Below are positions 1,876-27,451 of a DNA stretch of 64,000 nt, piece by piece. Source of the stretch: Dehalococcoidia bacterium. Lineage in GTDB: Bacteria; Chloroflexota; Dehalococcoidia; Lucifugimonadales; UBA3495. Positions within the stretch are counted from its first letter, which is position 1, and every line of letters starts with the position of its first letter. Below the pieces are notes generated by a model. That model was given only the letters and a program-made list of their open reading frames with translations. It ran no database searches and was not told where the DNA came from. A program made the position numbers and the translations under genes. The stretch spans positions 4,589,232-4,653,231 of the forward strand of contig OZ242013.1 in the NCBI GenBank assembly GCA_965204805.1, read 5' to 3'.

Positions 1876-4800
1876 TCAGTCGCCGCTGAGTTCGGCTACC
1901 TTCTCCTTCAGCCAGCGCAAACCGCCGTTGTTCACCTTCGTCTCGGACACCCAGTCCTCGTCGGTGGGGTCACCCAGGAAGAACCGGGGTATCACCGAGC
2001 CCGTCACCCCGGCCAGCCGGTCCACGTCGTCCTGCACGTCGCCCTTGACCTCGCTGTACTTGATTCCGGCGTCCTTCAGCAGCTTCACCCCTTGGTTGTA
2101 GCGGTCCACCGCGTCGTCTCCCGCGTCGGGGTCGTGGTAGATCACGAAGGAGACGGCGGGTTCACTGGCCGGAGTGTTGGCTGCCGCTACCGCGGCGGTG
2201 GCGGCGCTGGTCAGGGTCTCGGCGTTTCCAGCGTCGTCGGTGAAGGACACCGTTACCTTGATGGCCTTGCCCACATCGGCAGCGACTGGCGTGTAGCTGG
2301 AACCCGTGGCCCCCGATATATTCGCCCCGTCGGCCAGCCACTGGTAGCTGAAGCTGGCGTTGGCCAGCCCGTCGGCGTCGCTGATGCCCGAGGTGGCCAA
2401 CGTCAGTGTCTCTCCCACCTGCGCCGTGCCGCTGATGGTCGGGGCACCAGAGGCAGGGCTGTTGGCCAGCGGTTCCTGGGCCGGGGCCGCATTGGTGGTC
2501 CCGCTGCCCTCGGCCGAGTCGCCTTTGGCTTCTAATCCGGCGATGGTGTGGCGAGCCGTTACCTTGACCGTGTAGGCCGTCTCCGCCACCAGCCCCGTGA
2601 TCCGCTCGCTGGTGGCCGTGGCGTCGGAGCGGGTGACGGCGGTGTAGCTGCTGCTCCCCGTCTTCCACTCCACCACGTAGCCCACGGCTCCAGAGACCGC
2701 CGGCCAGGATACGTCCAAGCTGTCGCTGCTGTCGGCTACCGCCGAGACGGTGACGGCCCCCATGGCGGCCAGGGTGGTCCCGCTGGCCTCGCCCACCGCC
2801 AGTTCCGCGTCCGGGTCCGCCTCGGTGTCGATGGCCGTTACCTGGACGGTGTAGGCGGTATCTGCCGTCAGGCCGGTGACGGTGTGGCTGGTATTGGTCG
2901 CTCCCTCTCCGATGTTGTAGGAACCGGAACCGGTCTTCCACCGGACCAGGTACCGGTCGGCGTCGGTCACCGCCTTCCAGGACACTGCCAGCCTGGTGGT
3001 CTCACCGCTTACCGGATTGACCGTCAGCCCTTCCATCTCCGCCGGTTCCGCCGGCGCATAGGCCGTAGCGCCGCTCATTTCGGAGGTCTTCTCCCTGAGC
3101 CACCGCAGGCCGCCGTTGTTCTCTCCCGGCTGGGACACCCAGCCTTCTTCAGTGGGGTCTCCCAGGAAGAACCGGGGCAGGACCGAGTCGATCACCCCGG
3201 CCAGCCGGTCAACGTCATCTTGCACGGCGCCCCTGACCACCGTGTACTCGATCTCGGCGTCTATCAGCAGCTTGACCGCCTGGTTGTAGCGGTCCACCGC
3301 CGCATCTCCGGCGTTGGGGTCGTGGTAGACCACGAAGGAAACGGCGGGAGTCTCATCCGACTGCTGCTGGTCCGTGGTGCCGCTGGCCGTACCCTCGGCC
3401 AGCAGGCTGTTCTCCGCGTCCAGGGCGGCGACGTTGACGGTGTAGGTGGTGTTCGGGGACAGGCCCGTGATGGTGTAGCTGTTGGTGGTGGCCTGCTGGG
3501 CGTCGCCGTAGTCCCCGGCGCCGGTCTTCCAGCGCACGTCGTACCGCGCCGCGCCCTGCACCTCGTCCCAGTTCACGGCCAGCTGGCTGGGCTGGCCCGA
3601 AACGGAGGTAACGGTCAGGCCGGCCAGCGCCGCCGTTCCCACGCCTTCCGGCGGGCTCTGGCCTTGCCCGGTTTCGTTCGGCGCGTTGGTTGTGCCGCTG
3701 GCCTCGGCGGAGTCGCCGTCTTCGTGGTTGCCTAGCCAGTTGCTCAGCACGGTGACCTTGACCGTGTACGCCGTTTCGGCTTCGAGGCCGGTGACCTGGT
3801 AGGCGGTGGTGCCGCTGGAAACGGTCGCCGAGTTCGTGTCGGTGTAGTCCCCGGCGCCGGTCTTCCACTCCACCCGGTAGCCCCTGACCGTATAGCCGTC
3901 GGAGCGAAGCGTCGGTGCCGTCCACCGCACGTTCAGCTTGGTGGTCTCGCGGTCCGCCGCCGAAACGGACAGCCCGGTGATCTCCCCGAAAGTCGCGCCG
4001 TAGCTGGCGTGGGAGAGGCCGTCGGGCGCAGACGCGGAACCGGCGGCGGTATATGCGATGACCCTGGCCTCGTACTCCGTATTGGGCTGCAGGCCGGTCA
4101 CCCGCAGGACAGGCGACTTCAGCGGCTCGCCCGTGTAGTAGGGGAGGGTGTAGGTCCGGTAGGTCGTCATGTTGTCGGCGGTCACCGTGCGGCGGCTACT
4201 TGTCCCGCAGGTGTCGAAGGTGACCGGCTTCAACTCGATCACGTAGCCGGCCGCGGTGCTCACCGTCTCCCACTCGACGTCCGCGGCCCGGGCGTCGCCC
4301 GCGACGGGATCCAGGTACACCACGCCGGGCCAGCCGTGTAGCGTCACCGTCGCCTCCTGGGCGTGGCCGTCGCTCGCGCCGCCCTGTTGGGTCAGCCTGA
4401 CCGTGTGCACGCCCAGAGCCAGACCACTGACCTCATGGGAGGAAACCTCAGACCCAGCCGTGTGGCTGCGCTCCAAGGTGCTGTACGACTGCGCCCCGGT
4501 CTTCCATTGCACCAGGTAGCCAGTCACTCCCGGCTCCGTCGAGGGCGTCCACAACACCCTCAGCACGTCATCGAACAGCGAATGCTGCCTCGGTGCCAAC
4601 TGGGCGTTGGCGACACCGTTGACGCTGAACAACACGTTGGAGGATGGCTCAGCAGGCCACGAGCCCCCATGCCGTCTGTGGTTAACCGAGTAGCGTTGGA
4701 TGCGGCGGCCGTCGGCGATGGACCAGCCAGCCGCGCCGGTCTCGGCGTGCGAAAGAGTAAGTCTGACGCCGTTTCGGTGGGTGTAGGCACGGCAGACGAC

Positions 4801-7101
4801 GTCGATGATGACGTAGTAGGTGGTGTCCGGTTCCAGGTGGAGGCCGGGGTGGGTGAAGGTGTTGCCGCCGCTGCTCAGCGTGTCCGGGTTGGTCAATATG
4901 GCCAGCGCTTTCCCCGGCCTACCGCCGAGTGTGCTCTCGGCGGCGATGAAGACCTCCAGGCCGTCCGAGCGGGTGCCGGCAGGGATTCCCCGGAGAATGA
5001 GATCGACGCTGGTCAGCGTGTAGCCGGTGGCGTTGCCGCCGGTCGTGAAGCCCTGGGCGGCGTCGGCCCCGCCCAACGTCTCGTAGTTGCGCCGGGCATT
5101 GCCCGTGTTGCTGACCAGCACCCCAGGCGACGCCGACGGCGCGTTGGTCGTGCCGCTGCCCTCGGCGGAGTCGCCGTCGGCGGCCTGGCCGTCGATGCTG
5201 ACCCGGGCTGTTACCCTCACCGTGTAGACGGTGCTGGCGCTCAGGCCGGAGATCCGGGCCGAGGTGACGTTTGCCGCCGTGGTGTGCCTGCGCTCAGTAT
5301 CCGAAAACTCCTCGCCGCCGGTCTTCCACTGCACCAGGTAGCCGGTCTCCCCGTTGATGTCCGCCCAGGAGGGGCTCAGCTCGGTCGAGCTGCCGGCCAC
5401 CGCCGAGACGCTGATGGCGCCCATCTCGTCCGGCGTGGTGGCGACTGCCTGGTCCGACGCCAGGTCCGCGTCGGGGTCGGCGTCGGTGTCGACGGCGGTG
5501 ACCTGGACGGTGTAGGTCGTGTCCGCAGTCAGCCCGGTGATGGTGTGGCTGTTGGTGGTCACCGTCGTGCCGGAGGAGTAGGCGCTGGTGGCGGTCTTGT
5601 GCTGCACCCGGTACTGCTCCGCCCCCCCTTGCGCCGTCCACGACACCGCCAGCTCCGTGGTCTTGCCCGCCACCGGCTTGACGGTCAGCCCGGCCAGGTC
5701 CGCCAACGTGCCGTTGATGCGCATCACCAGGCTGGAGGCGCCCGAGGAGTATGTGCCCGTGGAGTTGTACGTCCGGTAGTGGCCGTCGTTGCCGATGGTC
5801 CAGCCCACCGTGCTGTCCTCGTCATTCGACGAGGTGGTGCGAACGTAGGTCCTGTAGGCAGTGCCGGTGGCGCTGACGTCGATGACCACGAAGTAGCTGG
5901 TGGAGGAGGCCAGCGCCAGGCCCGTGTGGGTGAATCTGTTGAGTCCGGTGGCCAGGGCCGGCGGCGCGGTGAGCGTGGCCAGGCTGTCGCCCGGCTGGCC
6001 GTTGCTGTCAGCGTGGACGGCGACGGTGAACGTCGGTGCGGTGCCGGTGGCTTCTCTCACCATGTCCAGGTCGACGCTGGTCAGGATGTAGCCGCCCCCG
6101 CCCGTCGTGAACCCCTGGGCATTGTCGTTGGAGAGTTGTATGTCCTGGGCGGTCTCGTCGGTGTTGGAGACCAGGGCCACCGAAGGGGTGGTGACGGTGC
6201 CGTTGATGCGCATCACCAGGCTCGCTGGGTCCGAGGAGTATGAGTCCAGGGAGCCGAAGGAGCGGTAGTGGCCATCGTCGCCGATGGTCCAGCCCGCCGT
6301 GCCGTCCTCCTCATCGGACCTGATGAAATTGACGAAGGTCGCAAAGGCGGTACCCCGGGCGCTGACGTCGATGACCACGAAGTAGCTGGTGGCGGGGGCC
6401 AGCCCCACGCCCGTGTGGGTGAACGTGTTGATCCCTTCAGCGATGGTCTCCGGCGCGGTGAGCGTGGCCAGTTTGCTGCCCGGCTGGCCGTTGCTGTCGG
6501 CGTGGATGGCGACGGTGAACGTCGGCGCGGTGCCCGGGTCCTTACCCATCGGCAACTCGACGCTGGTCACGATGTAGCCGCCGGCGCCCGTCGTGAACCC
6601 CTGGGCGCGGTCCTGGTTGTGCTCGAAGCTCTGGGGACTGCCCTTGCCGATGTTGGAGACCAGCACCTGTTCCTGCACAGGGGGTGCTTCGAGCACCACG
6701 ATGGCGATGTCGAACTTGGCCGTGTCGCCGTCGGCGTCGGTCACGGTGTACTTGTACCCGGTCAGGGCCTGCGCCCTCGTGGGGACGCCGGTCAGCTTGC
6801 GCGTCGACGCGTTGAAGGTCACCCCGGCGGGCAGCGTCGCGCCTTGCTCCGGCGTCAGGCTGTAGGTCAGCGTCCCGTCGCCGGTGGCTGCGGGGAGGGT
6901 GACGTCGACCGCAACGCCGACCGTGTACTCCTGGACCAGGTCGAGCACGGTGAACGTGCCGTCATGCACCCACTTCGGCCTGGTGTCCGCCTGGGCGGAG
7001 GCGTGGTCGGGCGAGCCGACAACCAGCAGGGCAACCAGGATGCCCAGGGCAAAGAGGACTCCCCGGTGCAGGATGAAGCGCGGCGGGCGCGACATGCTCA
7101 T
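1876..7101 (-). CDS. Giant secreted surface protein A (1741 aa): signal-anchor, cadherin-like Ig domain, 3x LVSN module, many FN3 repeats, internal plus C-terminal Grx-like domain
   Basis: Uninterrupted 1741-codon ORF with RBS caGGAGGtgagacctcATG. N-terminus MSMSRPPRFILHRGVLFALGILVALLVVGSPDHASAQA. One LPAATGDGTLTYSL..LPAGVTF..TGVPT Ig-like domain. Three ~150-aa modules (LVSN..AQGFTTG..GY.LTSV.L..FTVA.HADSNGQPG..LATLT.P....G.N.FTH.GL.L...T.YFVVIDV..GW.I). Numerous FN3-like units (L.VSW....GA..Y.V.WKTG...Y......T..T..ITGL...T.YTV.V.A). One PTISGTAQVGETLT..YQWLADG..I.GAT Ig-like repeat. The ~92-aa domain VSFV(I/V)YHDP.AGD.AVDRYNQ..KLL.DA.I.Y..V.G.VQDDVDRLAGV..SV.PRFFLGDPT.E.WVS......NNGGLRWL.EK occurs twice: internally at ~3070-3348 and at the C-terminus at 1876-2154. 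Confidence 0.9.
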   Translation of the reverse strand: MSMSRPPRFILHRGVLFALGILVALLVVGSPDHASAQADTRPKWVHDGTFTVLDLVQEYTVGVAVDVTLPAATGDGTLTYSLTPEQGATLPAGVTFNASTRKLTGVPTRAQALTGYKYTVTDADGDTAKFDIAIVVLEAPPVQEQVLVSNIGKGSPQSFEHNQDRAQGFTTGAGGYIVTSVELPMGKDPGTAPTFTVAIHADSNGQPGSKLATLTAPETIAEGINTFTHTGVGLAPATSYFVVIDVSARGTAFATFVNFIRSDEEDGTAGWTIGDDGHYRSFGSLDSYSSDPASLVMRINGTVTTPSVALVSNTDETAQDIQLSNDNAQGFTTGGGGYILTSVDLDMVREATGTAPTFTVAVHADSNGQPGDSLATLTAPPALATGLNRFTHTGLALASSTSYFVVIDVSATGTAYRTYVRTTSSNDEDSTVGWTIGNDGHYRTYNSTGTYSSGASSLVMRINGTLADLAGLTVKPVAGKTTELAVSWTAQGGAEQYRVQHKTATSAYSSGTTVTTNSHTITGLTADTTYTVQVTAVDTDADPDADLASDQAVATTPDEMGAISVSAVAGSSTELSPSWADINGETGYLVQWKTGGEEFSDTERRHTTAANVTSARISGLSASTVYTVRVTARVSIDGQAADGDSAEGSGTTNAPSASPGVLVSNTGNARRNYETLGGADAAQGFTTGGNATGYTLTSVDLILRGIPAGTRSDGLEVFIAAESTLGGRPGKALAILTNPDTLSSGGNTFTHPGLHLEPDTTYYVIIDVVCRAYTHRNGVRLTLSHAETGAAGWSIADGRRIQRYSVNHRRHGGSWPAEPSSNVLFSVNGVANAQLAPRQHSLFDDVLRVLWTPSTEPGVTGYLVQWKTGAQSYSTLERSHTAGSEVSSHEVSGLALGVHTVRLTQQGGASDGHAQEATVTLHGWPGVVYLDPVAGDARAADVEWETVSTAAGYVIELKPVTFDTCGTSSRRTVTADNMTTYRTYTLPYYTGEPLKSPVLRVTGLQPNTEYEARVIAYTAAGSASAPDGLSHASYGATFGEITGLSVSAADRETTKLNVRWTAPTLRSDGYTVRGYRVEWKTGAGDYTDTNSATVSSGTTAYQVTGLEAETAYTVKVTVLSNWLGNHEDGDSAEASGTTNAPNETGQGQSPPEGVGTAALAGLTVTSVSGQPSQLAVNWDEVQGAARYDVRWKTGAGDYGDAQQATTNSYTITGLSPNTTYTVNVAALDAENSLLAEGTASGTTDQQQSDETPAVSFVVYHDPNAGDAAVDRYNQAVKLLIDAEIEYTVVRGAVQDDVDRLAGVIDSVLPRFFLGDPTEEGWVSQPGENNGGLRWLREKTSEMSGATAYAPAEPAEMEGLTVNPVSGETTRLAVSWKAVTDADRYLVRWKTGSGSYNIGEGATNTSHTVTGLTADTAYTVQVTAIDTEADPDAELAVGEASGTTLAAMGAVTVSAVADSSDSLDVSWPAVSGAVGYVVEWKTGSSSYTAVTRSDATATSERITGLVAETAYTVKVTARHTIAGLEAKGDSAEGSGTTNAAPAQEPLANSPASGAPTISGTAQVGETLTLATSGISDADGLANASFSYQWLADGANISGATGSSYTPVAADVGKAIKVTVSFTDDAGNAETLTSAATAAVAAANTPASEPAVSFVIYHDPDAGDDAVDRYNQGVKLLKDAGIKYSEVKGDVQDDVDRLAGVTGSVIPRFFLGDPTDEDWVSETKVNNGGLRWLKEKVAELSGD

Positions 7102-7498
7102 GAGGTCTCACCTCCTGTCAGGGCACTGCTGGCGACAACTGGACGAGGGCGCGGGTAAACGGCAACCGCGCCACCGTCTTTGGACGGAGCGCGCTGAAAA
7201 GAGAACGCCGCGCGGTAAACTGACGGCGCGGCGGGATTATCCGGTGAGGCGGGTTTCCACCGGGCGGGGAACGCCGGCGAATGCTGGTTGATGGGCCGGT
7301 TCCCACCGGAACCGGAGGGTCCGGAGTGAGAGTGAAGTGCTCTGTCATTACACACCCTGTTCTAGCCGGAACGAGGGGGGGCTGACAGGGGTATGCTGAA
7401 ATGCAACCGGCGCGCCCCGAGGCGGTGGCGATTACGGCAAACGGCCCTGTTTCCGGCCTGAAGACAGCCAAGTTAATACAGCCAACTCTCCCGGTGGG
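7102..7498 (-). promoter_or_regulatory. Conserved ~400-nt 5' leader of gene A (copy 1 of 3): riboswitch/attenuator-like, class unrecognised
   Basis: Alignable with 12762-13195 and 27452-27909. The conserved core (~7251-7375) reads, in RNA sense, GGGUG.GUAAUG..A.AGCAC....C.U.ACUC-hairpin-GGUUCCGG.GGGA...CCA.CA.UCGCCGG.C.U.CCCGCCCGG.GGA. It is followed by an internal intrinsic terminator (7205-7243) and then ~100 nt to the RBS. Confidence 0.55.
7205..7243 (-). terminator. Intrinsic terminator inside the leader of gene A (attenuator candidate)
   Basis: RNA sense: CGCCGCGC-cgucaguuuac-GCGCGGCG followed by UUCUCUUUUC. It lies ~105 nt upstream of the ATG at 7101. The same hairpin, with compensatory changes, occurs in the other two leader copies. 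Confidence 0.6.
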
Positions 7499-7610
7499 CA
7501 GAATCTGAGAATATATTAGACACTCCCCATGAAATTGATATAGCAATATCGTGTAATCACTCTTTCATTTTGCGTGTCAATCTTTGTGTCAACCGGCTCT
7601 AGGGTATAAT
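7499..7610. promoter_or_regulatory. Conserved AT-rich divergent promoter block (copy 1 of 3)
   Basis: Near-identical ~60-bp block cagaatctgagaatatattagacactccccatgaaattgatatagcaatatcgtgtaatcac. On the minus strand this reads ..TAATATATT.., a likely -10 region for the leader. It is followed by the direct repeat GTGTCAA-N5-GTGTCAA and a perfect plus-strand TATAAT at 7605-7610. All elements are conserved at 13196-13309 and 27910-28023. Confidence 0.5.
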
Positions 7611-7733
7611 GGGTTCCGGTTTGGGCTCCCGCAGGTAGGATGACGCGCTTGGGCGGTCGCCTCAGTCCCGACCGGTGGGCCGATGTACCGCCATATCCGG
7701 CATCGGGTGACGGCGGCCGGCAACCAAAGCTGA

Positions 7734-7759
7734 GACGGCTCCCGCGTGCGGGAGCCGTC
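7734..7759 (-). terminator. Hairpin terminator after giant gene B (potentially bidirectional)
   Basis: Perfect inverted repeat gacggctcccgc-gt-gcgggagccgtc, 34 nt downstream of the TGA at 7793-7795. On the minus strand it is followed by UCUCAGCUUUGG. Confidence 0.55.
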
Positions 7760-7792
7760 CTCATCCCTTGGTCCTATCTCCGTCAGCGTTGG

Positions 7793-10700
7793 TCAGCCGC
7801 CGCTCAGTTCGGCCACCTTCTCCTTCAGCCAGCGGAGGCCCCCGTTGTTCTCGCGCGGCTTGGATGTCCACCCTTCCTCAGTGGGGTCCCCCAGGAAGAA
7901 CCGGGGCAGCACCGAGCCGGTCACCCCGGCCAGCCCGTCCACGTCCTCCTGCACATCGCCGATGACCTCGCTGTAGGAAATACCGGCGTCCTTCAGCAGC
8001 TTGACCGCCTGGTTGTATCGGTCCACCGCGGCGTCCCCGGCGTCTGGGTCGTAGTAGATGACGAAGGAGACATCCGGAGCCGCAGCCGATTGCTGCTCGT
8101 CCGTACCTTCACCTTCATTCGGGTCGGTGGACTGGCCGGTTTGCGGCTCCGTGGCGCCGTTGGCCGTGGCCTCCGCCAGCAGTGTGTTGTCCCCGTCCAG
8201 GGCGGCGACGTTGACGGTGTAGCTGGTGTTCGCCGACAGGCCCGTGATGGTGTAGCTGTTCGTGGTGGCCTGCTGGGCGTCGCCGTAGTCCCCGGCGCCG
8301 GTCTTCCAGCGCACGTCGTACCGCGCCGCGCCCTGCACCGCCCCCCAGGACACGGCCAGCTGGGTGGGCTGGCCCGAGACGGAGGCAACGGTCAGGCCGG
8401 TCAGCGTCGCCGTTCCCACGGGGTCCTGGTCCTGCGAGGGATCGGGTTGGACGGCCTCGCCGGTCTGCGGCGGCGCCGCCGTGGTTCCGACGACTGCGCC
8501 CGCCGCAAGGATCTCATCCGTTGCCGTGTTATAGGCGAAGACGTGGATGGTGTAGGCCGTGTCCGCCGTCAGGCCCGTGATGGTGTGGGGGCTCCTTGTC
8601 AGGTTCGGCGGCCTGCTCGGCGGCTCCACCCGTCCCTCATCCCCGGGGCCGGAAATGCTGTAGTTGCCGGTGGCGGTCTTCCAGCGGACGTTGTACCGGG
8701 TGGTGATCCCCGCCGGGGGAGTCCAGGTCCAGGACACCACCAACCGTGTGTGAGCGTTCGTGGCGGGCGCTGAAACGCTCAGCCCGGTCAGCGTGCCGCC
8801 GGTGGTGGTGGCGTCGTGGCTGTCATCGGCCTTCAAGTAGCCGTCCGCGCCGGTTGCCGCGACGTAGACGACGTAGTTCGTGCCGGCCTTCAGGCCCGTT
8901 ATGGTGTAGCTGGTCCCGGTGGTCTCCACGGCCTCGCTCCACGGGTTGCCGACGCCGCTTTCCTTCCAGCTGACGCTGTACTTGGTTGCGCCCTCCACCC
9001 CGTTCCAGGACGCCGCCAGCTGGGTGTTCTCCCCGGTGACGGGCTCCACGGCCAGGGTCAGCGTCGTCGGGAGGGGTTTCGTGGGTGTAGATTCGGTCGC
9101 CGTGCCGGGTGTGCCGCTGCCCGAAGCCTGGCCGATGTCATTGTTCTGGTGGCGGGCCGTGACCCGCACGGTGTAGATGGTGTCCTCCTCCAGCCCGGTG
9201 ATCCGCTCGTATGCCGCCTTGGGGTCGGTCCTGGTGACTGCGGTGAAGGCGCCGGTGTTCGGGCCGGTGCCGTCGGGGGTCAACCACGTCCGGTACTCCA
9301 CGACGTAGGAGATGTCGTCCCTGGGGATGGCGGTCCACCACACGTCCAGCTTGTCGGCTTCGCCCTGGATGGGCTGGACGGTGACGGGGCCGAAGGGACC
9401 GCGGGTCTTGCCCGTCGCCCGGCCCGAGCCCATCTCCAGGCCGTCCGTGGCGCCCTCTATCGCCACCACCTGGACGGTGTACAACGTATCGGCCTCCAGT
9501 CCAGTTACTGTAGCGGTGGCCTTGAAGCTTGGTATGCCTATCGTGAGATTGGCGCGGCTGATAGTCTGGGACACCGTGTACGGGATGTGGTACAGGCCTA
9601 TGCTCCCCTTCTTGTACTCAACCCGGTAGTGGTCGGCGCGGGAATCATCCTCCCAGAACACCCGGAGTTGGTTCTGGTTCGTGTGGTCGGTCCTGGCCTC
9701 GACTCCCCCTATGGCCAGCTCCGAAGTGGTGGCGATAACCGTGTCCTCACCAGCGTCCCCGCCGAGAGTGTTACCTCTAATGTACCAGGCTACTGCGACC
9801 CTTACCGCGTAGTTCGCGTTGGGGGTGAGACCGGTTATCCGAAAGGGTGAGGCCGCACCGGCCTTGGCTGTGACCCAGGATGCCGTGCCATCCTTCCGGT
9901 ACCTCACGGTGTAGTGGTAATAGCCTGTGCTCGGCTCAAGGGCCGGCCAGGACACGATAAGGCCGTCGCCATGGTTCACCACAGGACTGGCCTGGACGCC
10001 GTCGAACACCGCGCGGGTCGTGCCCACGGCTTGGCCGGAGCCAAGACTCCCGCCGCTCCCCAGCGCCGTCACCTGGACGGTGTACTCGGTGTCAGCCTCC
10101 AGGCCCATCAACCGGAAGAAATGGCCGACCTGTAGCGGAGGCGTGGAGTCCCTGAACAGGACGAACGGCTCCGACGGGTCCGTGCCCGCCTTGTACTCGA
10201 CCCGGTAGGCGGTGGTGCCGGGCACGGCCTGCCAGTTCAACCGGAGTTCGGTTACGTGGAGGGGATGGTTTTCCGCCGTGACTCCCCCGACCCTCTGGAC
10301 CGTCAACTCAGAGGTGGTCCCGCGCGCCTTGGCGGCGGGGTTATCGGTGCAGCCGGAGCCCGACTTCTGGAAGCCCAGCCGGACCTCGTACTCGGTGCTG
10401 GCAACCAGGCCGCTGATCTGGTACGTCGTGGTCTGGCTGGTCAGGGACTGAGTGGTCCCGTAGCTGCCGATGCCCGGCGGCGTCCGCCAGTCCAGGCAGT
10501 AGCCCGTTGCGCCGGAGAACGGGTCCCAGGACACGTCCAGGGCCCCGGCGTCGCCGGCCACGGGGGTCACGGCGAGCCCGGTGGGACGGCTCAGGGTGGT
10601 GACCTGGGCCGTCGCCTTGTTCACCCCTGCGTTGGGGTCCGCCTCGCGGCGGTGGGCCGAGACCTCGACGGTGTATGTCGTGGCGGGCCGCAGAATGCTG

Positions 10701-12761
10701 GCGGCAGGTTCATAGATCTTCATGGCCGAGCCATGCGACAGCCTCGTCTCGTACTCGCCGCCGCTCCCGTCGGTCAACCTGACCCGGTAGAAGTCGGCGC
10801 TCGGCACCGGATTCCACAGCAACCCGATCGTCATCCTGCCGTCGTCGACGAAGCCGGGGGTCGCCACTAGCCCGGTGGGCGCGGGCAGGGACTCCGAATC
10901 CGCCGGTGGCGGCGGCTCCGGCGGCGTGCCATTCGTCGTGCCCTGGGCCTCGCCGGTGATGCTGGGACGCCAGCTGCTTCGCACAGGGGTGACCTTCACC
11001 GTGTAGGTCGTGCCGGGGGCCAGACCTCCGATCCGGTGGCTGGTCTTCGTCGTGGTCGTCCAACCGGACTCCTGTCCCTCCGCCCGCCACTCTATCCGGT
11101 AGTGACGAGTCCAGCGCACGGAGGGCCAGGACACGTCCAGCTCGGTCGTGCTGCCGTCCACCGGGGCGACACTCACGGTCAGAACCCCCCGGGGGCCGGG
11201 TCCGGCTCCGGCGGAGGAGGTCCCGGTTGCCCGACCTTGGGCGGGTCGGCCAGACGCACCTTCGCGGGCGGCACGGGATGGCTCGTATAGTTCCCGAAGC
11301 GCAGGGTGAAGCTGCCCGTCTTGAGCGGGTAGGCGCTGGTGATCTCCAGGATGTAGTTGCCGGGGTCCAGGGTCCGCACCAGCCGCGAGTTCAGGCTGAA
11401 CGGGTTGCGCTGGTCGTCGTTCTCGTCGATCCTGACGGCGCTGCCCGGGCTGTTGCCCTCGGCCAGGTAGAGCTGGGCGTCGAAGTCGTCCGACTCCAAG
11501 GTGAACACCACGTCCTGGCGATGCTGGCCGGTGACGCTGAAGCTGGCGTGCCGGGCGTAGGCCGAGACGTAGCGAGGCGGGAATATGGCCGGGCACGCGC
11601 TGGTGAGCTCGTCGTCGTACTTGCCGAACTCGATGGGCGCCGGCGCACAGGGCGGGGTGTCCGGTTGCGGCAAGGGGATCGGCTTGACGAGGCCCTTCAC
11701 CTCTATGTGCCTGGTGGTGGAGAGATGCGTAAATGTGCCCGTGGAGTCCCAGGCCCGCCGAGAGATATTGTTGTTGATGCTCCAACCGGGCGCGCCGGAC
11801 TCGCCAGTGTCGGCAGTGCCCAGGAGCCGGTCATCGCTGCGGTTGGAGGCGTCGATGAACACCATGTAACTGGTGGGGCGGCCAGGTCCAGGCCCGAGTG
11901 GGTGAACGTGTTCCTGCCGCTAACGATGGCCTGGGGCGCGGTCAGATCGCCCACCTTGGTGCCCAGCTGGTTGCCGTTGGCGGTGTAGATGGCGACGGCG
12001 ACCGTCGACCTGACGGTTCCGGCGTGGGCTATGTTCAGGTCGACGCTGGTCAGGGTATAGCCGGTCGGGTTGCTCCCCGTGGTGAACCTCTGGGCATAGT
12101 CAAATCTCAGGGTGCCCCAGAAATTCTGCACGCGGTCGAAGTTGGTGACCAGCACCCCTATACCCTTGGCGACGCCGTTGATGCCGATCTTCAGGGCAGT
12201 TGTGGCCGTCGACCACGCGCCCGTGGAGTTCCAGGCCCGGCCATGGGCCACGTTGTTGATGCTCCAACCCGACGCGCCGGACTCGGCGTCGGAGAGGGTA
12301 ACGTCGATACCGCTCCCCGTACCTGTGGAAGTGACGTCGAAGACCACGAAGTAGCTGGTGGAGGGGGCCAGGTCCAGGCCCGTGTGGGTGAACGTGTTTA
12401 CGCCGGTGGCGAGGGTCCCCGGCGCGGTCAGCGTGGCCAGTCTGTTGCCGGGCTGGCCGTTGCTGCTGGCGTGGACGGCCACGGAGAACGTTGCCCTGTT
12501 GCTCTGCGTGAAGGCCATGTCCAGATCGACGCTGGTCAGGGTATAGCCCAAGATGCTGCTGCCCGTCGTGAACTCCTGGGCATACTTCTCAGTCCTGAAG
12601 TCCGCATTGGCCGCGGTCGTCTCGCCGATGTTGGAGACCAGGGCCGCCGACTGGGCGGAGGCCCGGTCCGGCGAGCCCACGGCCAGCAGAACGATCAGGA
12701 GACCCAGGGCGATGAGGACGCCCCGGTGCAGGATGTAGCGCGACGGAAGCAGTCTGGTCAT
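7793..12761 (-). pseudogene. Giant secreted surface protein B (~1656 codons if repaired), split by two 1-nt frameshifts in homopolymer runs
   Basis: Three ORF-track pieces join into one protein: 11703-12761, 11179-11865 and the biologically meaningful part of 7793-11785. Junction 1: ..NTFTHSGLDLAAP | TSYMVFIDASN.. at the G4 run 11875-11878. Junction 2: ..PPPPEPDPAPGG | VLTVSVAPVDGSTTELDVSWP.. at the C6G5 run 11185-11195. The span is 4969 nt, and adding 2 nt gives 1657 codons. Content: family signal-anchor MTRLLPSRYILHRGVLIALGLLIVLLAVGSPDRASAQ, 2 LVSN modules, a PPC-like domain, many FN3 repeats, and the C-terminal Grx-like domain (7793-8071). Confidence 0.8.
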
Positions 12762-13195: not shown

Positions 13196-13309
13196 CAGAA
13201 TCTGAAAATATATTAGTCAATCCCCATGAAATTGATATAGCAATAACGTGTAATTACATCTCAAATATGAGTGTCATTCTTTGTGTCAATTAGCCGGTGA
13301 GGGTATAAT
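13196..13309. promoter_or_regulatory. Conserved AT-rich divergent promoter block (copy 2 of 3)
   Basis: cagaatctgaaaatatattagtcaatccccatgaaattgatatagcaataacgtgtaattac, then GTGTCAT-N5-GTGTCAA, then TATAAT at 13304-13309. Confidence 0.5.
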
Positions 13310-13503
13310 AGGTTCCGGTTGGGCGCTCCCGGAGGCAGGATGACGCCCGCGGGCGGTCGCCTCCGTGTCGGCTGGTTAGTCAGCGATGATTGCCCTCACA
13401 CCCTGAGCCTGCCTGAAAGCCTCTTCTATTGGCCCCAGTTCCGGCCGGGGGCCGACGTCCCGCTATGTCCCGCATCGGGTGGCGGCGGGAGGCAAACAAA
13501 GCC

Positions 13504-21300: not shown

Positions 21301-22317
21301 CGCGGCGGGCAGCGCCACCGGCGTCATGGCGGCATCCTTGGTCAGGACCTGGTTGGCCACGGTGCTCATGCCGAAGCTCGGCGTGGAGTTCGCCGTCACG
21401 GCGAGGGAGAAGGTCAGCTCGGCCGTGTCGCCGTTGCTGTCGGTGGCCACGAAGGTGTAGGTCGCGGCCGCCGCCGTCGCGCTCGGCGTGCCCGTGATCG
21501 CCCCTGAGGTGGAACTGTAGCTCAGCCCGGCCGGCAGGGCCTCCTTGACGGAGTAGGTCAGCGGGGCGTCGCCGCCGGTCGCCAACGGAAGGAACCCCGA
21601 AGTGTTGGGCTTGTTGACCGCGAACGCCATGTCCGGTATGGACGCCATGGCCCCGAAGCTCGGCGAGGAGTCGGAGCCGGTCTTGGCGGCGCCCTTCACC
21701 TGTATCTGGAATGCCCGGGTGGCCGAGTCAGTCCCCCAGTTCCCGGAACTGACTTTCAGCAAGTAGTTGGCGTCAATGTTCCAGCCGGCGGCGGCGCCCG
21801 AGTCCAGGCCGTCCCTGAGGAGGACCCTCCGCCACCCCGGACCGCCCGTCCTCGAATTGTACTCAGCGACCACGAAATAGGTCGTGTTCGCGGACAATTC
21901 GGCGTCCGCCGGCGCGGCGAATTCGTTCAGTCCCGTAGAAATCGTCCCCGGGTTGGGAAGCGTGTACAGGGCGGTCCCGCTCGGTGTATCTGCAGTAGTT
22001 GAACTCTCCTCCTGAACCGTCACCCGCAATGTGGCATTGACAGCCGGCGCGGATGCGAAAGCCAGAACTACGCTATCCAGCTCGTATCCGTTCGCATTCG
22101 ATCCCGTGTCGAACGCTTGAGCATATGTAATAACGTCGTTGGGCACGCGGTGGCCAGAGACGGGTTTTCCCGTATTGCTGACCAGCACTTCGGTACTTGA
22201 TTCCGCCTGGGCGGAGGCGCGGTCAGGCGAGCCGGCGGCCAGCAGAGCAATCAGGAGGCCCAGGGCGATGAGGACCGTCCCTGGCAGGGTGATGCGCAAT
22301 AGGCGTGGCTTGCTCAT
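18361..22317 (-). CDS. Giant secreted surface protein E (1318 aa): signal-anchor, LVSN module, ~9 dystroglycan/cadherin-like Ig domains, FN3 repeats, C-terminal Grx-like domain
   Basis: Intact ORF. RBS GGAGGagcatcATG lies 18 nt after the stop of the upstream gene F, suggesting an operon. The Ig-like repeats follow the pattern PSFG......Q......I..L.LP.ATGG...L.Y.L....LPAGL.F......I.GTPT...AA.TYT..(V/A)TD.DGD.AEL.F.I.V. C-terminal domain at 18361-18639. Confidence 0.9.
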   Translation of the reverse strand: MSKPRLLRITLPGTVLIALGLLIALLAAGSPDRASAQAESSTEVLVSNTGKPVSGHRVPNDVITYAQAFDTGSNANGYELDSVVLAFASAPAVNATLRVTVQEESSTTADTPSGTALYTLPNPGTISTGLNEFAAPADAELSANTTYFVVAEYNSRTGGPGWRRVLLRDGLDSGAAAGWNIDANYLLKVSSGNWGTDSATRAFQIQVKGAAKTGSDSSPSFGAMASIPDMAFAVNKPNTSGFLPLATGGDAPLTYSVKEALPAGLSYSSTSGAITGTPSATAAAATYTFVATDSNGDTAELTFSLAVTANSTPSFGMSTVANQVLTKDAAMTPVALPAATGGNAPLRHSFSPTLPAGLSFEKSGDTYRLKGTPTTPQDATSYTWQADDSDNEFAAVSFTITVMPNAAPSFGAETIANQTYIQHRKITDLTLPAATGGDGALTYTLTGPNGAALPAGLSFDAATRKLTGTPTASQAATTYTYTVTDSDTANPDSATLTFTITVTANAVPSFGAMASIPDMAFAVNRGSFSTDLPRATGGDTPLTYSVKETLPAGLSYSLGTIMGTPSATAAAATYTFVATDSDGDTAELTFSLAVTANSTPSFGMSAVANQVLTKDAAMTPVALPAATGGNAPLRYSFHPTLPAGLSFEKSGDTYRLKGTPTARQDATSYTWRADDSDYEFAAVNFTITIVQGAAPSFGANTISNQSYTQNTPISDLTLPTATGGDGTLSYALVGTLPAGLEFNSTTRKITGTPTATQAATTYTWSVTDNDGDKAELTFTITVSATSAMDTKPQWVFDGTFTVLDLVQEYAVGAAVDLTLPRATGDGPMTYSLTPEAGATLPAGLNFYAPTRRLTGVPTTAQPLTGYTYMVSDADGDTAKFDLAISVAVSPGARQHPLIDDIMIVSWTRSTDTGVTGYLVQWKSGDQQYSTTERSHTAGPTDSSSEISDLPLGVYTVKVTQQGGAGDGNSVEYTVTLHGWPGVVYVDPVAGNARAVDVEWETVSTAAGYVIEWKLASADSYPQANRASVTAGSLNYRTATDGYTGETVQYPTHRVTGLQPNTEYEARVTVYTAAGSATSPDGLSHENSGTTHAEITGLTAVAVDGQPTQLTVSWNTPPDSKVRGFEASGYLLQWKTGSDDYNDGTSLSPRTSTTITGLTAGTAYTVRLTVKGTLFGATADGDSAEASGTTSAATGTGQSQGASSAPPGEQSGEGSDSDEQQSDSTPAISFVIYYDPDAGDAAADRYNEAVALLDDAGIAYSEVRGDVRDDVDRLAGVTDSIIPRFFLSDPTEEGWVSKPKVNNGGLRWLKQKVAELSGD
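19930..21663 (-). repeat. Tandem in-frame duplication of an 867-bp (289-codon, three-Ig-domain) unit inside gene E
   Basis: The string gaccgcgaacgccatgtccggtatggacgccatggccccgaagctcgg occurs at 20749-20796 and again at 21616-21663, an offset of 867. The stretches 20281-20640 and 21148-21507 differ only by scattered substitutions. The third domain of each unit is more diverged. Confidence 0.85.
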
Positions 22318-22335: not shown

Positions 22336-25300
22336 TTACTCCCCACTCAGCTCGGCGACCTTCTGTTTGAGCCATCGCAGGCCGCCGTTGTTCACTTTCA
22401 CCTCTGAGACCCAGCCTTCCTCCGTGGGGTCGCCGAGGAAGAAGCGGGGTATGATCGAATTGGTCACCCTGGCCAGCCGGTCAACGTCGTCCTGGACGTC
22501 GCCGATGACCTCGCTGTACGAGATGCCGGCGTCTTTCAGCAGCTTGACCGCCTGGTTGTAGCGGTCCACCGCAGCGGCCCCGGCATTGGGGTCGTAGTAG
22601 ATGACGAAGGTGACGGCGGGGGTTGAATCCTGCTGGTCCTCCGCCACCACCGCCGCCGTGGCGGCGCTGGTCAGGGACTCGGCGTTGCCGGCGTCGTCGG
22701 TGAAGGACACCGTTACCTTAATGGCCTTGCCCACGTCGGCAGCGACTGGCGTGTAGCTGGAGCCCGTGGCTCCCGATATGTCCGAGCCGTCGGCCAGCCA
22801 CTGGTAGGCGAAGCTGGTGTTGTCCAGCCCCTCGGCGTCGCTGATGCCCGACGTGTCCGCCGTGAGCGTCTCTCCCACCTGGACCGTGCCGCTGATGGTG
22901 GGCGCTCCGCTGGCCGGAGTGTTGGCCGCCGCCGCTACCGCCGTCGTGGCGGCGCTGGTCAGGGACTCGGCGTTGCCGGCGTCGTCGGTGAAGGACACCC
23001 GCACGCTGATGGCCTTGCCCACGTCACCGGCCACCGGGGCATAGCTGGCACTCGTGGCCCCGGATATGTCCGACCCGTCGGCCAGCCACTGGTAGCTGAA
23101 GCTGGCGTTGGTCAGCCCGTCGGCGTCGCTGATGCCCGACGTGTCCGCCGTCAGCGTTTCTCCCACCTGGGCCGTGCCGCTGATGGTGGGCGCGCCGGAG
23201 GCCGGAGTGTTGGCAGGCGGCGCGTTGGTGGTGGCGGTGCCCTCGGCGGAGTCTCCGTCGGCTTCTACTCCGCCGATCGTGTGGCGGGCGGTGACGCGCA
23301 CGGTGTAGGCCGTCCGCGGCTCCAGGGAGGTGATCCGCCCGCTGGTGGCCGCCGTTTCCGACCTCGCGAAGGAGCCGTAGGCGCCGCCCGCCTGCTTCCA
23401 CTCCACCACGTAGCCAGTCGCGCCCGACACGGCCGGCCAGGACACCTCCAGGATGTCGCTGCTGCCCTCGACCGCCGCGACGCGGACCGCGCCCATCGCG
23501 GCCAGGGTGGCGCCGGAGGCTTCACCCACAGCCAGCTCAGCGTCGGGGTCGGCGTCCGTATCGACGGCCGTCACCTGCACCGTGTAGGAGGCGCCTGCTG
23601 CAAGTCCGGTGATGGTGTGGCTGGCGCTCGTCGTCTCCGCACCGCTGTTGTAGCTGTCCGAGCCGGTCTTCCACTTGACTACGTATTTGTCGGCGTCGGG
23701 CACGGCCTGCCAGGAGACGGCGAGCCTGGTTGTCTCTCCCCCGACGGGGTGGACGGTCAGCCCCAACAGCGCTCCGGGCTCGGGCGACTGAGGGGCGCCG
23801 GTGCTGGCCTTCACATCCCGCTCGGCCAGGGTCTCGAACCCGTCCCGCATGGCCGACACCGCTTCCAGCGCAATGGCGTACTCGGTGTCCGCCTCCAGCC
23901 CGGTGAGCTGGAGGCTGGTCCGGGGCGATCTGGCCTCGATGGCCTGCCCGCCGTTCACCCGGATGAAGTAGTGGAAGGCGCCCTCCACGGCCTCCCAGGA
24001 CACGTACAGGGCGTCGGTGCGGCCCGTCACCGGCGCGACCGAGACGGGCCAATAGGGGCCGGTGGCCGTCCCTTCCGCCAGCACGGCGTTGTCCTCGCTG
24101 ACGGCGGCGACGTTGACGGTGTAGTTCGTATCGGGGGTCAGGCCCGTGATCGTGTAGCTGTTCGTGGTCGCCTCTACCGAGTCGGCGGAGCCGTCCTTCC
24201 AGCGCAGGTCGTACCTGGCCGCGCCCTCCACCGGGTCCCAGGACACGGCCAACTGGGTCGGCTCGCCCGGGACCGGGGCCAGGGTCAGGCCGGTAAGCTC
24301 CGCCGGGCCGTCGGACTCCGGCTCATCCGGCGAGAAGGCCGCTTCGCTGTTGGCGAGGGTGAACCGGACAGGGGGAACTTCCCGTGCTCGGGGATGAAGT
24401 AGATGTACTCCTCGCCCTCCTCAACGTTGTCGTCGTAGGGAATGAAGGTCTCGGTCCAGGTGACGCTGGTCTGCCCGGCCGGTATCATGTTGCCGATGTA
24501 GTGACCGAGAACCGCGTAGTCCGTCGGCCCTCGCCAGTTGTCGTCTCCCCGGTAGTCCCTCGGCGACAGCGCCACCGGGAGACAGTCGTAGCTCGGCCGG
24601 CCCGAACACGCGTATGCCTCCCCGAGGGCCGCGCTGTGATTGACTTGGAAGTAGTAGTTGCGGGGGTGGGGGGCGCCGATGTTGGCGGTGAAGGTCAGCG
24701 TGGTCGGCCCGGCGTCTTCATCCACGCGGTCGGGCGAGACCGTCAGGATCATGTCCTCGGGTCCTTCGTTGATGAGGCCCTTGATGAACAGCTTGATGGC
24801 CCGCTGGTTCACCAAGGTGTAGTCGCCGGTCGAGTCCCTGCCCCGCCGCTTGTACTGGTTGTAGAGGATTTGCCCCGCTTCGCCGTCCAGATTGGCGTTG
24901 CCGGACTCAAATTGGCTGGTGATTCTGATCACGCCGTTGCCGCTTCCGCCGGAGTCGATGACCACGAAGTAGTTCGAGTCGATGTCGAGCTTCATTCCGG
25001 GGTGGGTCCACTCGTATATCCCGTTCCAGTAGTACCCCCAATGGGGGTTGTCCAGGGTGCCCAGCTTTTTGCCCGGCTGGCCCGAGGTGTTCTCGTGGAC
25101 GGAGACGGTGAAGGGCGCCCGGGGGCGGTCCGTGAACTCCAGGTCCAGATAGATGCTGGTCAGGGTGTAGCCGTCCTGGTGGAGGCCCGTCTTGAACTCC
25201 TGAATGATGTCGTAGGTGCCCAGGGCGACGGTGGAGGCGATCGTCGCGCTCATGTTGGCGACGAAAATATCCCATCCGCCCACCGGGGGCTTCGGCTTGA

Positions 25301-27451
25301 CGATGCCGTTGACCTGCATCTTGATCACCGAATTGACTAACGAAACCCACGCACCCGTGGAGTTCCAGTCCCGGTCAAAGCCCACGTTGTTGATGCTCGC
25401 ACCCTTTGCGCCGGTCTCTCCGCCGGACAAGGTAGTCCGAACAGCGGTGGTGGTGCTCGAAGTGGTGACGTCGACGACCACGAAATAGCTGGTGGCGGGG
25501 GCCAGGTCCAGGCCCGCGTGGGTAAACGTGTTCGTCCCGGTCGCGATGGTCCCCGGCGCCGTCAGCGTGGCCAGCCTGCTGCCCGGCCGGCCGTTGTTGT
25601 CGGCGTGGACGGCGACGGTGAACACCGGGCTGGTGCCCGCTCGGACCACCATGTCGATATCGACGCTGGTCAGCGTGTAGCCGGTCCAGTTGACGCCCGT
25701 GGTGAACTCCTGGGCGTAGTCCTTATCGAATCTCCCAGGCAAGCCGGACGTCTCGGTGAGGTTGGAGACCAGGGACTGGCGCTTGACCACGCCGTTGACG
25801 CGCATCGACATGGTATCGGTGCTAACCCGAGCGCCCGTGGAGTTCCAGAGCCGCCAACTGCTCCCGTTGGCAATGCTCCATCCCTGGGCGCCAGTCTCTC
25901 CGTTGGATTGGGTGAGTTTGATTTCGCCATCACCACTGGAGGCAGTGGCGTCAACGACCACGAAGTAGCCGGTGGCGGGCTCCAGGGCCAGGCCCGTGTG
26001 GGTGAACCGGTTGGTGCCGGTCGTGAGGGTCCCCGGCGCGGTCAGATCGGCCATCTTGCTGCCCGGCTGGCCGTTGCTGCTGGCGTGGACGGCGACGGTG
26101 AACGGCACCTTGTCGCCCGTCGTGAACGACAGGTTCAGATCGACGCTGGTCAGGGTGTAGCCGGCGCTGTTGCTGCCCGTCGTGAACTCCTGGGCACGGT
26201 CAGCATTGAGAACACCACCGAAGACCGTCTCGGTGAGGTTGGAGACCAGGGACTGGCCCACGACCGCGGTCGCATTCGTGGTGACGGTGGTTTCGGACTG
26301 GGCCAACAGGGTCGGTTCAGCCCCTATGGCGATGATTTCGGCCCGGATTCGGACGTCATACTCGGTGTTGGCCGTCAGGCCGGTGATCTGCGCGCTCGTG
26401 TCGGGCGCGGAAACGACTACACGGTCGCCACCGTACGAGCCGCCACCGGTCTTCCACTGGACAGTGTAGGTGGTAGAGTTAGTCACCGCGTCCCAATCCA
26501 CGTCGAGCTTGTCTTGTCGGTGCTGCCGGAGACCGGGGTGACGGTAAAACCGGGCACCGCCGGCGGATTGGTGGTGGCGGTGGTTTCGGACTGGGCTGCG
26601 ATGGTAGAAGGAGGGTTTATGGCCCTGATTTGGACGCCATATTCGGTGTTGGCCGTCAGGCCGGTGATTTGATAGCTCGTTGCTGGGGCAGCGAAAGTTG
26701 TCGAGCCAGTCGGGGAGTCGTACGTCTGGTCGCTGGTCTTCCACCGGATATTGTATCTGCTGAAAGTGACGCCGGTCGGCGCGTTCCACGACACGTCGAG
26801 CTTGTCAGAGCTGCCGGAGACCGGGCTCGCGGTCAGGCCGGGCACCGCTGCATATTTGATGGCGCCGCTTACGCGTATCTGAAGGGCACCGGTGTCATCA
26901 GTCCAGGTGGTGCCGGTGCTGGTCTTCTTCTTGTGGCCGTTGGTGATGATCCAGCCCGCCGTGCTGTCCTCGTCGTTGGAGTCGGTGCCCCGGATCGAGC
27001 CCGTGCCGGTCGTGCCCCCGTCGACGACGACCACGTAACTGGTCGAGGCGGACAGGTCCAGGCCCGTGTGGGTGAACGTGTTGTTGCCGGTGGCGATGGT
27101 TTGAGGGGCCGTCAGCGTGGCCAGCCGGTTCCCCGGCTCGCCGCTGCTGCTGGCATGGACGGCGACGCTGAACACCGACTTGGTTCCGGGCGGAGAAGGA
27201 AAGGCCAGTTGAATGTCCACGCTGGTCAGGGTGTAGCCGAGGGTGTTGCTGCCCGTCGTGAACTCCTGCGCATAGTCGCTGCGAGGACTGACCGTCCAGG
27301 TGTTCCCTTTGCCGACGTTGGAGACCAGGGCCGCCGACTGGGCGGAGGCCCGGTCGGGCGAGCCCATGGCCAGCAGGACGATCAACAGACCCAGGACGGT
27401 CAGAACCAGCCCGGGTAGTAGGATGTAGCGCGACGGCAGCAGTCTGGTCAT
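22336..27451 (-). pseudogene. Giant secreted surface protein F (~1703 codons if repaired), split by a 5-bp tandem duplication and a 1-nt homopolymer frameshift
   Basis: ORF pieces 26483-27451, 24285-26789 and 22336-24252 form one protein. Junction 1: ..AVPGFTVTPVSGSTDK | LDVDWDAVTNSTTYTVQWK.. at CTTGTCTTGT 26508-26517 (coding strand ACAAG ACAAG). Junction 2: ..IPEHGKF(P) | PVRFTLANSEAAFSPDEPESDGPAELTGLTLAPVPGEPTQLAVSWDP.. at the G5 run 24371-24375. The span is 5116 nt; minus 5 plus 1 gives 1704 codons. Content: family signal-anchor, 4 LVSN modules, FN3 repeats, two PTISGT.QVGETLTADTSGISDA.GL.N.SF.YQWLADGSDISGAT Ig-like repeats, and the C-terminal Grx-like domain (22336-22614). Confidence 0.8.

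Follow-up and report, generated by a model that had tools for sequence, protein, structure and literature searches.

Giant modular adhesin-like proteins of a Dehalococcoidia bacterium share a constrained, cysteine-free terminal domain of predicted glutaredoxin fold

The closest described counterparts of the gene array considered here come from several export systems. Adhesins of the LapA, Bap and ice-binding RTX kinds carry a C-terminal signal for the type I secretion system (T1SS), RTX repeats and an N-terminal retention module; cargo of the type IX secretion system (T9SS) comprises many otherwise unrelated large secreted proteins that end in a conserved domain of about 90 residues; and type Va autotransporter adhesins (TIGR01414) end in a beta barrel. 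How proteins are retained on the unusual envelope of the Chloroflexota is little understood, and the phylum is not known to have a T9SS. Here we analyze a window of 64,000 nucleotides from a Dehalococcoidia bacterium (Chloroflexota; GenBank assembly GCA_965204805.1, contig OZ242013.1, positions 4,589,232 to 4,653,231), in which five minus-strand genes, A, B, D, E and F, fill nucleotides 1876-27451 and encode paralogous, adhesin-like giants with secretion-type leaders. None of the standard anchor signals occurs in these proteins, and all five end in the same domain of 94 residues, hereafter the C-domain. We regard it as firm that these genes make up a regulated family whose giant, Sec-type modular products combine lectin-like heads with Ig-like stalks and end in a new, strongly constrained, cysteine-free domain of predicted glutaredoxin fold (Grx-fold). 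Established here are the gene structures, the domain identities and folds, the rarity of the C-domain, purifying selection, and a conserved synteny and operator.

The open reading frames (ORFs), an internal jackhmmer search and Pfam matches bear out the proposal of an initial annotation, made from the nucleotide sequence, that the five genes form a paralogous family of giant modular proteins with common N- and C-terminal modules. Gene A (1876-7101; intact, 1741 aa; here and below, features of the array lie on the minus strand) encodes a signal, one He_PIG domain that precedes the first of three choice-of-anchor R modules, at least seven fibronectin type III (FN3) domains, an internal copy of the C-domain, more FN3, an Ig-like (ZirU-like) repeat and the terminal C-domain. 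Gene D (13561-18231; intact, 1556 aa, identical to the database protein P0025) joins a signal and one choice-of-anchor R module to WSDG propeller-like repeats, a PPC-like domain, FN3 and the terminal C-domain, and gene E (18361-22317; intact, 1318 aa), which starts 18 nt past the stop of F, has a signal, one choice-of-anchor R module, seven He_PIG domains, FN3 and the terminal C-domain. Genes B (7793-12761) and F (22336-27451) reach about 1658 and about 1705 aa once both frameshifts in each are bridged; B then reads as a signal, two choice-of-anchor R modules, a PPC-like domain, nine FN3 domains and the terminal C-domain, and F as a signal, four choice-of-anchor R modules, FN3 and the terminal C-domain.

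The C-domain forms the last 94 residues of all five proteins (A, 1879-2160; B, 7796-8077; D, 13564-13845; E, 18364-18645; F, 22339-22620), and these terminal copies are 73-83% identical in pairwise comparisons. Each protein thereby ends in a soluble acidic helix (...KVAELSGD/E/G); a flexible acidic linker precedes the terminal domain, which itself has neither a hydrophobic segment nor a basic tail. While the claim of a common terminal domain thus stands for the five ends, a six-frame scan revealed a sixth copy that is internal to A (3067-3348, aa 1252-1345). Since further FN3 repeats continue in frame downstream of this copy, and the 600 nt around it resemble the 3' end of B at 79% identity, the sequence suggests that it is probably the scar of two tandem genes that were fused.

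Searches with the C-domain yielded no match in Pfam (none at E<=10), NCBIfam or the PDB sequences, and PF00462, PF00085 and their relatives were not significantly matched. Likewise, 42 diverse members of its family scanned against Pfam gave no convincing match: one member hit Glutaredoxin at E 0.17, and another result, a single hit to CBD_PlyG at E 0.013, we regard as chance. Our literature searches recovered no description of the C-domain, of the function of choice-of-anchor R, or of the related metagenome-assembled genomes (MAGs). An AlphaFold (AF2) model of the terminal copy of A (mean predicted local distance difference test score, pLDDT, 86.6) shows the order b-a-b-a-b-b-a, and the top 50 Foldseek matches to it are almost all thioredoxins, glutaredoxins, protein disulfide isomerase (PDI) or N-terminal domains of glutathione S-transferases. 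When the C-domain profile was compared with the PDB sequences, the glutaredoxin 2klx ranked first and in register, at a non-significant E of 0.35. On these models the C-domain is predicted to fold like thioredoxin and glutaredoxin, but it lacks their catalytic cysteines: the position of the CxxC/CxxS motif after strand 1 reads YHDPDAG, and cysteine is absent from all six window copies and from the family consensus. A redox function was rejected on account of the missing cysteines.

The conservation pattern of the domain is distinctive. Across the 42 diverse members, Y8, D10, P58-R59-F60-F61, G63-D64-P65, W70, N77-N78-G79-G80-L81 and W83-L84 are invariant or at least 90% conserved, which yields the near-invariant motifs YHDP, PRFFLGDP and NNGGLRWL in sequences that otherwise share only 35-50% identity. 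In the non-significant profile alignment, P58 of PRFF and G79-G80 of NNGG are conserved where glutaredoxin has its cis-Pro loop, ahead of strand 3, and its GG motif, ahead of the last helix. Going by the topology of the thioredoxin fold, the YHDP, PRFF and NNGG loops would line the position of the glutaredoxin active site and may form a conserved binding groove. The six window copies diverge at synonymous sites (dS) by 0.28-0.73, with ratios of nonsynonymous to synonymous divergence (dN/dS) of 0.14-0.55, the internal copy of A having the higher ratios. Together these values indicate, at the level of sequence, that the similarity among the copies reflects purifying selection on old paralogues; recent gene conversion as its source was rejected on the dS values. 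The earlier picture of a rapidly evolving repertoire with recent internal duplications is correspondingly overstated: the DNA duplications within the giant genes are only 80-87% identical, and hence not very recent.

Genes B and F are interrupted, as had been noticed, but by two frameshifts each rather than one. In B the first lies near nt 11874, within the second N-terminal module, where the paralogous copies read GCCCCCTCCACC and B instead GCCGCCCCACC, and the second lies near nt 11185 at a C5G6 run. In F the first, near nt 26510 (approximately 26503-26513), is a duplication of ACAAG (GACAAG ACAAG CTC), and the second falls near nt 24375 at a C5 run. Because the ACAAG lesion is a 5-nt tandem duplication and not a homopolymer indel, it is probably a real mutation rather than a read error; the other three frameshifts fall within runs of C or G, a context in which assembly errors or slippage could account for them. 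Such lesions would be expected if the array were largely decaying relic DNA, that is, pseudogenes of an older adhesin expansion without present function, and short C-domain fragments encoded elsewhere (P0010 and P0061), apparently on the same 4.68-Mb contig as gene D, as well as a family fragment beside transposases in a related locus (L001), are in keeping with such decay. Against it stand the open frames of 1318-1741 codons kept by three of the genes, the dN/dS ratios well below 1, those of the C-domains of B and F included, the possibly artefactual nature of the frameshifts in C or G runs, and the conservation of promoter, operator and regulator across genomes (see below). We accordingly hold a relic array to be very unlikely, a partial pseudogenisation being possible.

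The leader is closely similar in all five genes, with a positively charged n-region, a hydrophobic core of 15-16 residues and the ending ...SPDRASAQ. It had been described as a common signal-anchor; since an A-x-A site is present (with cleavage between ASA and Q), its sequence favors a cleavable Sec signal over an anchor. With neither a twin arginine nor a lipobox cysteine in the leader, Tat and lipoprotein signals were rejected. The N-terminal module, of about 160 aa, is present in exactly 11 copies in the internal jackhmmer search (E 1e-46 to 1e-75), the number given by the initial annotation: four in F (26855-27334, 25782-26252, 25296-25775 and 24771-25265), three in A (6193-6666, 5707-6177 and 4609-5121), two in B (12162-12647 and 11683-12155, the latter spanning the first frameshift), and one each in E (21682-22188) and D (17587-18096). 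It has no match in Pfam, and corresponds to the NCBIfam family NF041539, choice-of-anchor R, which a single module matches with 106.6 bits over model positions 1-154 of 155 (cut-off 30), whole-protein scores being 230.5 bits for A, 45.6 for D and 81.1 for E. Unlike the C-domain, the N-terminal module is thus already catalogued, as a family defined by sequence alone and named without a tested function.

An AF2 model built on ten window copies of the choice-of-anchor R module is an all-beta sandwich (pLDDT 84.3). Its nearest solved folds are phage baseplate and receptor-binding domains, the lectin-like domain of Cwp84 (template modelling score, TM, about 0.6) and CBM6/35; these similarities are weak, but all point to a lectin-like binding jelly roll. 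The regions between the terminal modules contain the mixtures of FN3, cadherin-like Ig, PPC-like and WSDG segments that had been recognized at the outset. Pfam detects FN3 stretches (PF00041) in all five proteins, seven in A, nine in B, four in D, two in E and at least six across the fragments of F, with scores above gathering of 192 bits (A), 220.9 (a fragment of B), 117.4 (D) and 61.3 (E); He_PIG (PF05345) occurs seven times in E (178.1 bits) and once in A. Direct inspection of the translations showed both B and D to have PPC-like segments, and D to have WSDG repeats at about residues 230-690. The giant genes have a G+C content of 65-69% against 55-63% across most other parts of the window, and it falls to 57% in the 5' half of D, which holds the WSDG repeats (especially 16001-18000); this contrast hints that parts of the array are mosaic or foreign in origin.

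With regard to anchoring, the absence of LPXTG, SLH, autotransporter, RTX and T9SS-type C-termini, already claimed in the initial annotation, agrees with our scans, in which none of the corresponding Pfam and NCBIfam models matched any of the five proteins. The ends of the proteins, being soluble acidic helices, have none of the motif, hydrophobic segment and basic tail of sortase substrates. The only trace of a T1SS was a hit to T1SS_rpt_143 at E 0.038, with 13.9 bits against a cut-off of 66, and no RTX match was seen in the five proteins. The T9SS C-terminal domain was matched by neither Pfam nor NCBIfam models, and the C-domain has an alpha/beta fold and occurs in internal copies. A type Va autotransporter barrel is absent from the window proteins and present only in one class of their relatives, and no catalogued wall-binding module, SLH included, is among the Pfam and NCBIfam matches of the five.

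The C-domain family is rare. An exhaustive profile search among 1.84 billion cluster representatives recovered 115 proteins at E<=1e-3; it was this search that revealed the family, a word-index protein search having returned short fragments alone. The domain ends the protein in 50 of the 101 near-full-length copies, and the family falls into two classes. In class 1, usual in Chloroflexota-type proteins and including P0025 (gene D) and P0021 (the 3' ORF of B), the C-domain is terminal, usually with 0 residues after it, and some members have a second, internal copy. In class 2 the domain lies within the protein, once or twice, ahead of Calx-beta and then of about 470 glycine-rich residues ending in ...RW; two of six such ends match the TIGR01414 autotransporter barrel (best E 1e-5), Pfam OMP_b-brl matches weakly (E 0.005-0.04), and the barrel-like region gave nothing significant against the PDB sequences. 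Class 2 proteins begin with choice-of-anchor R (P0052 and P0082 match NF041539) and also contain FN3, He_PIG, cadherin or SRCR repeats. As the same order of head, stalk and Grx-fold domain is here coupled to a barrel, the C-terminal side would be cell-proximal in the homologous architecture.

When one genome per species was scanned with narrow patterns, which class 2 would escape, the terminal form turned up in just two, the Chloroflexota MAG JAJEGF01 and the Dehalococcoidia MAG CBDBMB01. The former encodes a tandem gene pair with the same leader peptide and architecture. Two TARA metagenome contigs (L010 and L011) carry one to four family genes; scans of metagenome contigs with broad and narrow C-domain alignments gave pattern matches and no confirmed relative. 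On the metagenome contigs L006-L009 the autotransporter-like proteins have the Grx-fold domain before Calx-beta and the barrel-like end, and in L006 and L007 the gene next to such a protein encodes a Peptidase_S24 (LexA-like). The few relatives of the choice-of-anchor R module for which a source name is given include MAGs labelled Bacteroidetes SB0668_bin_1, Gammaproteobacteria and Chloroflexi. Sponge-associated Entoporibacteria are among the bins of the series SB0661-SB0678 (PMC7883664), and a host-associated marine origin of the window organism is plausible.

This distribution bears on what the C-domain might do. One possibility is that it is a terminal sorting signal, recognized and possibly removed by dedicated machinery, after the manner of T9SS C-terminal domains, sortase substrates or PEP-CTERM proteins. 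About half of the family representatives have it exactly at the C-terminus, with 0-2 residues following; terminal copies keep the acidic tail ...AELSGD and are preceded by the flexible linker; and the N-terminal family bears the name choice-of-anchor, which we take to denote proteins carrying alternative C-terminal anchors. However, A has an internal copy, and proteins of the autotransporter-like class, equipped with a translocator of their own, regularly contain the domain internally, once or twice. Nor is any candidate machinery gene kept beside the family in the window or in the related loci L002, L004, L010 and L011. The thioredoxin-like alpha/beta fold also differs from the beta sandwich of the T9SS domains, and the hydrophobic segment and basic tail are missing. 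Because of the internal copies and the lack of a conserved machinery gene nearby, a classical cleaved sorting signal is less likely, and we deem it distinctly unlikely overall. Hence, of the anchoring, sorting or partner-binding roles envisaged at the outset, cell-proximal docking or binding fits better.

Alternatively, the C-domain could be a structural or folding module, such as a cap, an autochaperone-like nucleus or an acidic, Ca2+-binding, calsequestrin-like unit, that makes no specific docking contact. Its acidity, the calsequestrin chains among its Foldseek matches, its tandem or repeated occurrence in some proteins (e.g. P0013-P0016), and its place near the barrel and adjoining Calx-beta in the autotransporter-like class would suit a unit of this kind. 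Yet near-invariant loop motifs in domains of such low overall identity exceed the usual needs of a scaffold, and the autochaperone of autotransporters directly precedes the barrel, whereas here Calx-beta and a linker of about 100 aa intervene. A purely structural role is possible, though in our estimation unlikely.

The reading we favor, which we consider evenly poised between right and wrong, is that the array encodes modular surface adhesins as a regulated repertoire, docked non-covalently by their cell-proximal Grx-fold module, in a marine, probably host-associated, Dehalococcoidia-type member of the Chloroflexota. We infer that the very large, modular proteins would be exported by the Sec pathway with cleavage of their signals, and would reside at the surface or in the matrix, with the choice-of-anchor R jelly rolls as heads that bind ligands at the distal end, the regions of FN3, He_PIG, PPC and propeller type as stalk and accessory binding parts, and the 94-aa Grx-fold domain, behind its flexible acidic linker, as the cell-proximal end. 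There the domain would act as a non-catalytic docking module whose groove, formed by the YHDP loop, the cis-Pro PRFF loop and the NNGG loop, would bind an envelope component or a partner, so that the protein is retained after removal of the signal peptide. What suggests docking is the terminal position after a flexible linker in proteins without a catalogued anchor, the cell-proximal place of the domain in the barrel-bearing relatives, its conservation pattern, and the view, stated in general terms in 10.1101/2025.08.19.671072, that Chloroflexota lack an outer membrane.

Several points weigh against this reading. The structural similarity seen by Foldseek is modest (best E about 1e-3, TM 0.5-0.6), and the gathering of the conserved residues into a single groove is inferred from the topology of the thioredoxin fold. 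For the envelope type of this lineage we rely on the account that the above source gives of Chloroflexota in general. No binding partner or ligand was identified, and the domain cannot be the anchor itself where it is internal, as in A and the autotransporter-like class. Apart from the regulator described below, no conserved neighboring gene was found at the related loci, so that to speak of a cell-surface system, as was initially done, is too strong. Two of the five genes are frameshifted, and the proteins could equally be released into the matrix or held by an uncleaved signal.

Beyond the docking of this one family, we entertain, as possible but doubtful, the wider idea that the Grx-fold domain represents an unrecognized class of envelope attachment, serving the display of giant adhesins in Chloroflexota and reused close to the surface in the autotransporter adhesins of other bacteria, possibly those of the same host-associated communities. 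In a more daring version, which draws on analogy, the two invariant Asp-Pro bonds (YHD-P and LGD-P) might permit self-cleavage and covalent attachment, and this would resemble FrpC-type self-processing modules and GDPH sites.

The regulation of the array centers on an adjacent hybrid sensor-regulator gene (28032-30422, plus strand), which the initial annotation had pointed out and which is conserved in other genomes. Its product contains GAF, PAS, HisKA, HATPase, receiver and OmpR-type winged-helix domains (Pfam), and, as Pfam detected no N-terminal membrane domain, it would by its sequence constitute an entire two-component pathway in one cytoplasmic polypeptide. Orthologues with 76-87% amino acid identity divergently adjoin family genes in both TARA contigs, the one in L010 being split into two ORFs, and the receiver and DNA-binding part (73% identity) adjoins a family relic in the Chloroflexota MAG (L001/L003, JAJEGF010000083). 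At the latter locus the family gene is truncated (FN3 and C-domain) and neighbors a split response regulator, a homologue of the window regulator; IS110- and IS481-type transposase genes flank the gene, an arrangement that suggests decay of a once similar locus.

Genes A, B and F share an upstream region of about 500 nt. A direct-repeat core, TGACACAAAGA(A/T)TGACAC, occurs three times in the window (0 expected), each time upstream of one of these genes on the minus strand; a third repeat, TTACAC, stands about two helical turns downstream of it, followed by a TAATAT box. The divergent control region between F and the regulator (27452-28031) holds the operator TGACACAAAGAATGACAC (27985-28002), the further TTACAC repeat, the TAATAT -10-like box, and a GC-rich leader of about 430 nt with a C14 tract (about 27780-27793). 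The control region of B (12762-13560) contains the terminator of F-E-D (13503-13534), the second operator copy (13271-13288), a promoter and a leader, and that of A (7102-7792) a hairpin past the stop of B, the third operator copy (7574-7591), a promoter and a leader. The operator/promoter core is kept between the regulator and the family gene in both TARA contigs (L010 2585-2859, L011 9773-9908). We consider the direct-repeat element a candidate OmpR-type operator on the strength of its sequence; the copy at 27985-28002 and the annotated start of the regulator are separated by about 30 nt, which makes autoregulation possible. Genes D and E have no operator/leader region, their upstream gaps being 129 and 18 nt, and this, together with the terminator after D, indicates the units F-E-D, B and A. 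Transcription of these units would proceed from three copies of one activator-dependent promoter, at each of which the phased TGACAC-type direct repeats would be bound by the adjacent GAF-PAS hybrid kinase/OmpR-type regulator, and would then have to cross a long, structured leader that carries a terminator-like hairpin.

The shared structured leaders proposed initially are common to A, B and F and conserved elsewhere; as to structure, the F leader folds much better than shuffled sequences (z = -5.0) and the B leader does not (z -1.5). The latter includes a terminator-like hairpin (12915-12940, minus), with a GC-rich stem of 9 bp followed by UUUUUCU, about 155 nt upstream of the start codon, and hairpins aligned to it are present in the leaders of A and F. 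In a four-sequence leader alignment examined by eye, the hairpins of B and F differ by one apparently compensatory change (U-A vs C-G). These sequence features suggest control of the very long transcripts by attenuation or antitermination. A search of Rfam with nucleotides 1-32000 of the window gave no match. The leaders also share an element CCTGTCAGCC(C)n (about 27780-27793, 7376-7389 and 13101-13114, minus; about 2850 and about 11340 in L010), whose run is C14 before F, C6 before A, interrupted before B and C7-C8 in L010; such a tract might be prone to slippage and thereby allow phase variation, or might mark an assembly error. An ORF at 27969-28589 (minus) was dismissed as an antisense shadow of the kinase gene.

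Beyond the regulator, the window encodes a trypsin-like peptidase (30451-31389), an Eco57I-like restriction-modification protein (31551-34466), a GmrSD-type endonuclease (34549-36285) and a PIN-domain protein (36282-36698). By its gene content the segment 30451-36698 looks like a small defence/toxin island, and none of its genes recurs next to family members in the related loci.

The C-domain, with its 94 residues rare and under strong constraint, ends many giant adhesin-like proteins; it offers a concrete, readily testable candidate for surface retention, and merits, at minimum, a family entry of its own. Its reuse beside autotransporter barrels elsewhere suggests a common toolkit of adhesin parts, maybe within marine host-associated communities. 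The locus further presents a compact regulatory case, in which a sensor kinase is fused to an OmpR-type regulator, the operator-promoter is present in triplicate and a terminator-like hairpin sits within a long leader. Giant modular adhesins are a known kind of protein, and the N-terminal module already belongs to a named family; what is new to the searched libraries is the C-domain.

Set beside the known systems, the window proteins are closest at their N-termini to the choice-of-anchor R proteins, since their module matches the NF041539 model over its full length; the autotransporter-like P0052 and P0082 match the model too. A combination of this module, a Grx-fold domain at the terminus and a kinase-regulator dedicated to the family, in contrast, was not found in the libraries and literature searched. 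With the type Va autotransporter adhesins they are linked by relatives that combine a choice-of-anchor R head, an FN3/He_PIG/cadherin stalk, one or two Grx-fold domains, Calx-beta and a barrel-like ...RW end, but the window proteins, which end directly behind the Grx-fold domain, have no barrel and belong to a phylum regarded as lacking an outer membrane. They resemble the LapA, Bap and ice-binding RTX adhesins in size, in long runs of Ig-like extenders, in ligand-binding modules, tandem paralogy and internal duplications, and differ in their N-terminal Sec-type signal and the lack of RTX repeats. The likeness to T9SS cargo lies in the conserved terminal domain; that of the window proteins, however, is predicted to be a thioredoxin-like alpha/beta domain rather than a beta sandwich, has no T9SS match and occurs in internal copies. 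The FN3- and cadherin-rich 'eukaryote-like' proteins of sponge symbionts are similar as FN3-rich giants, and the few relatives of the N-terminal module with a source name include MAGs of three phyla, SB0668_bin_1 among them, with restriction and toxin genes near the window array; the literature on those proteins concerns domain enrichment and not this C-domain or regulon. Finally, the C-domain parallels the b and b' domains of PDI, calsequestrin, the N-terminal domain of SasA, and ArsD, which use a thioredoxin fold without CxxC for binding and several of which are among its Foldseek matches; it shares no detectable sequence relationship with these redox-inactive domains, and is set apart by its predicted extracellular location on giant adhesin-like proteins and by invariant motifs of its own.

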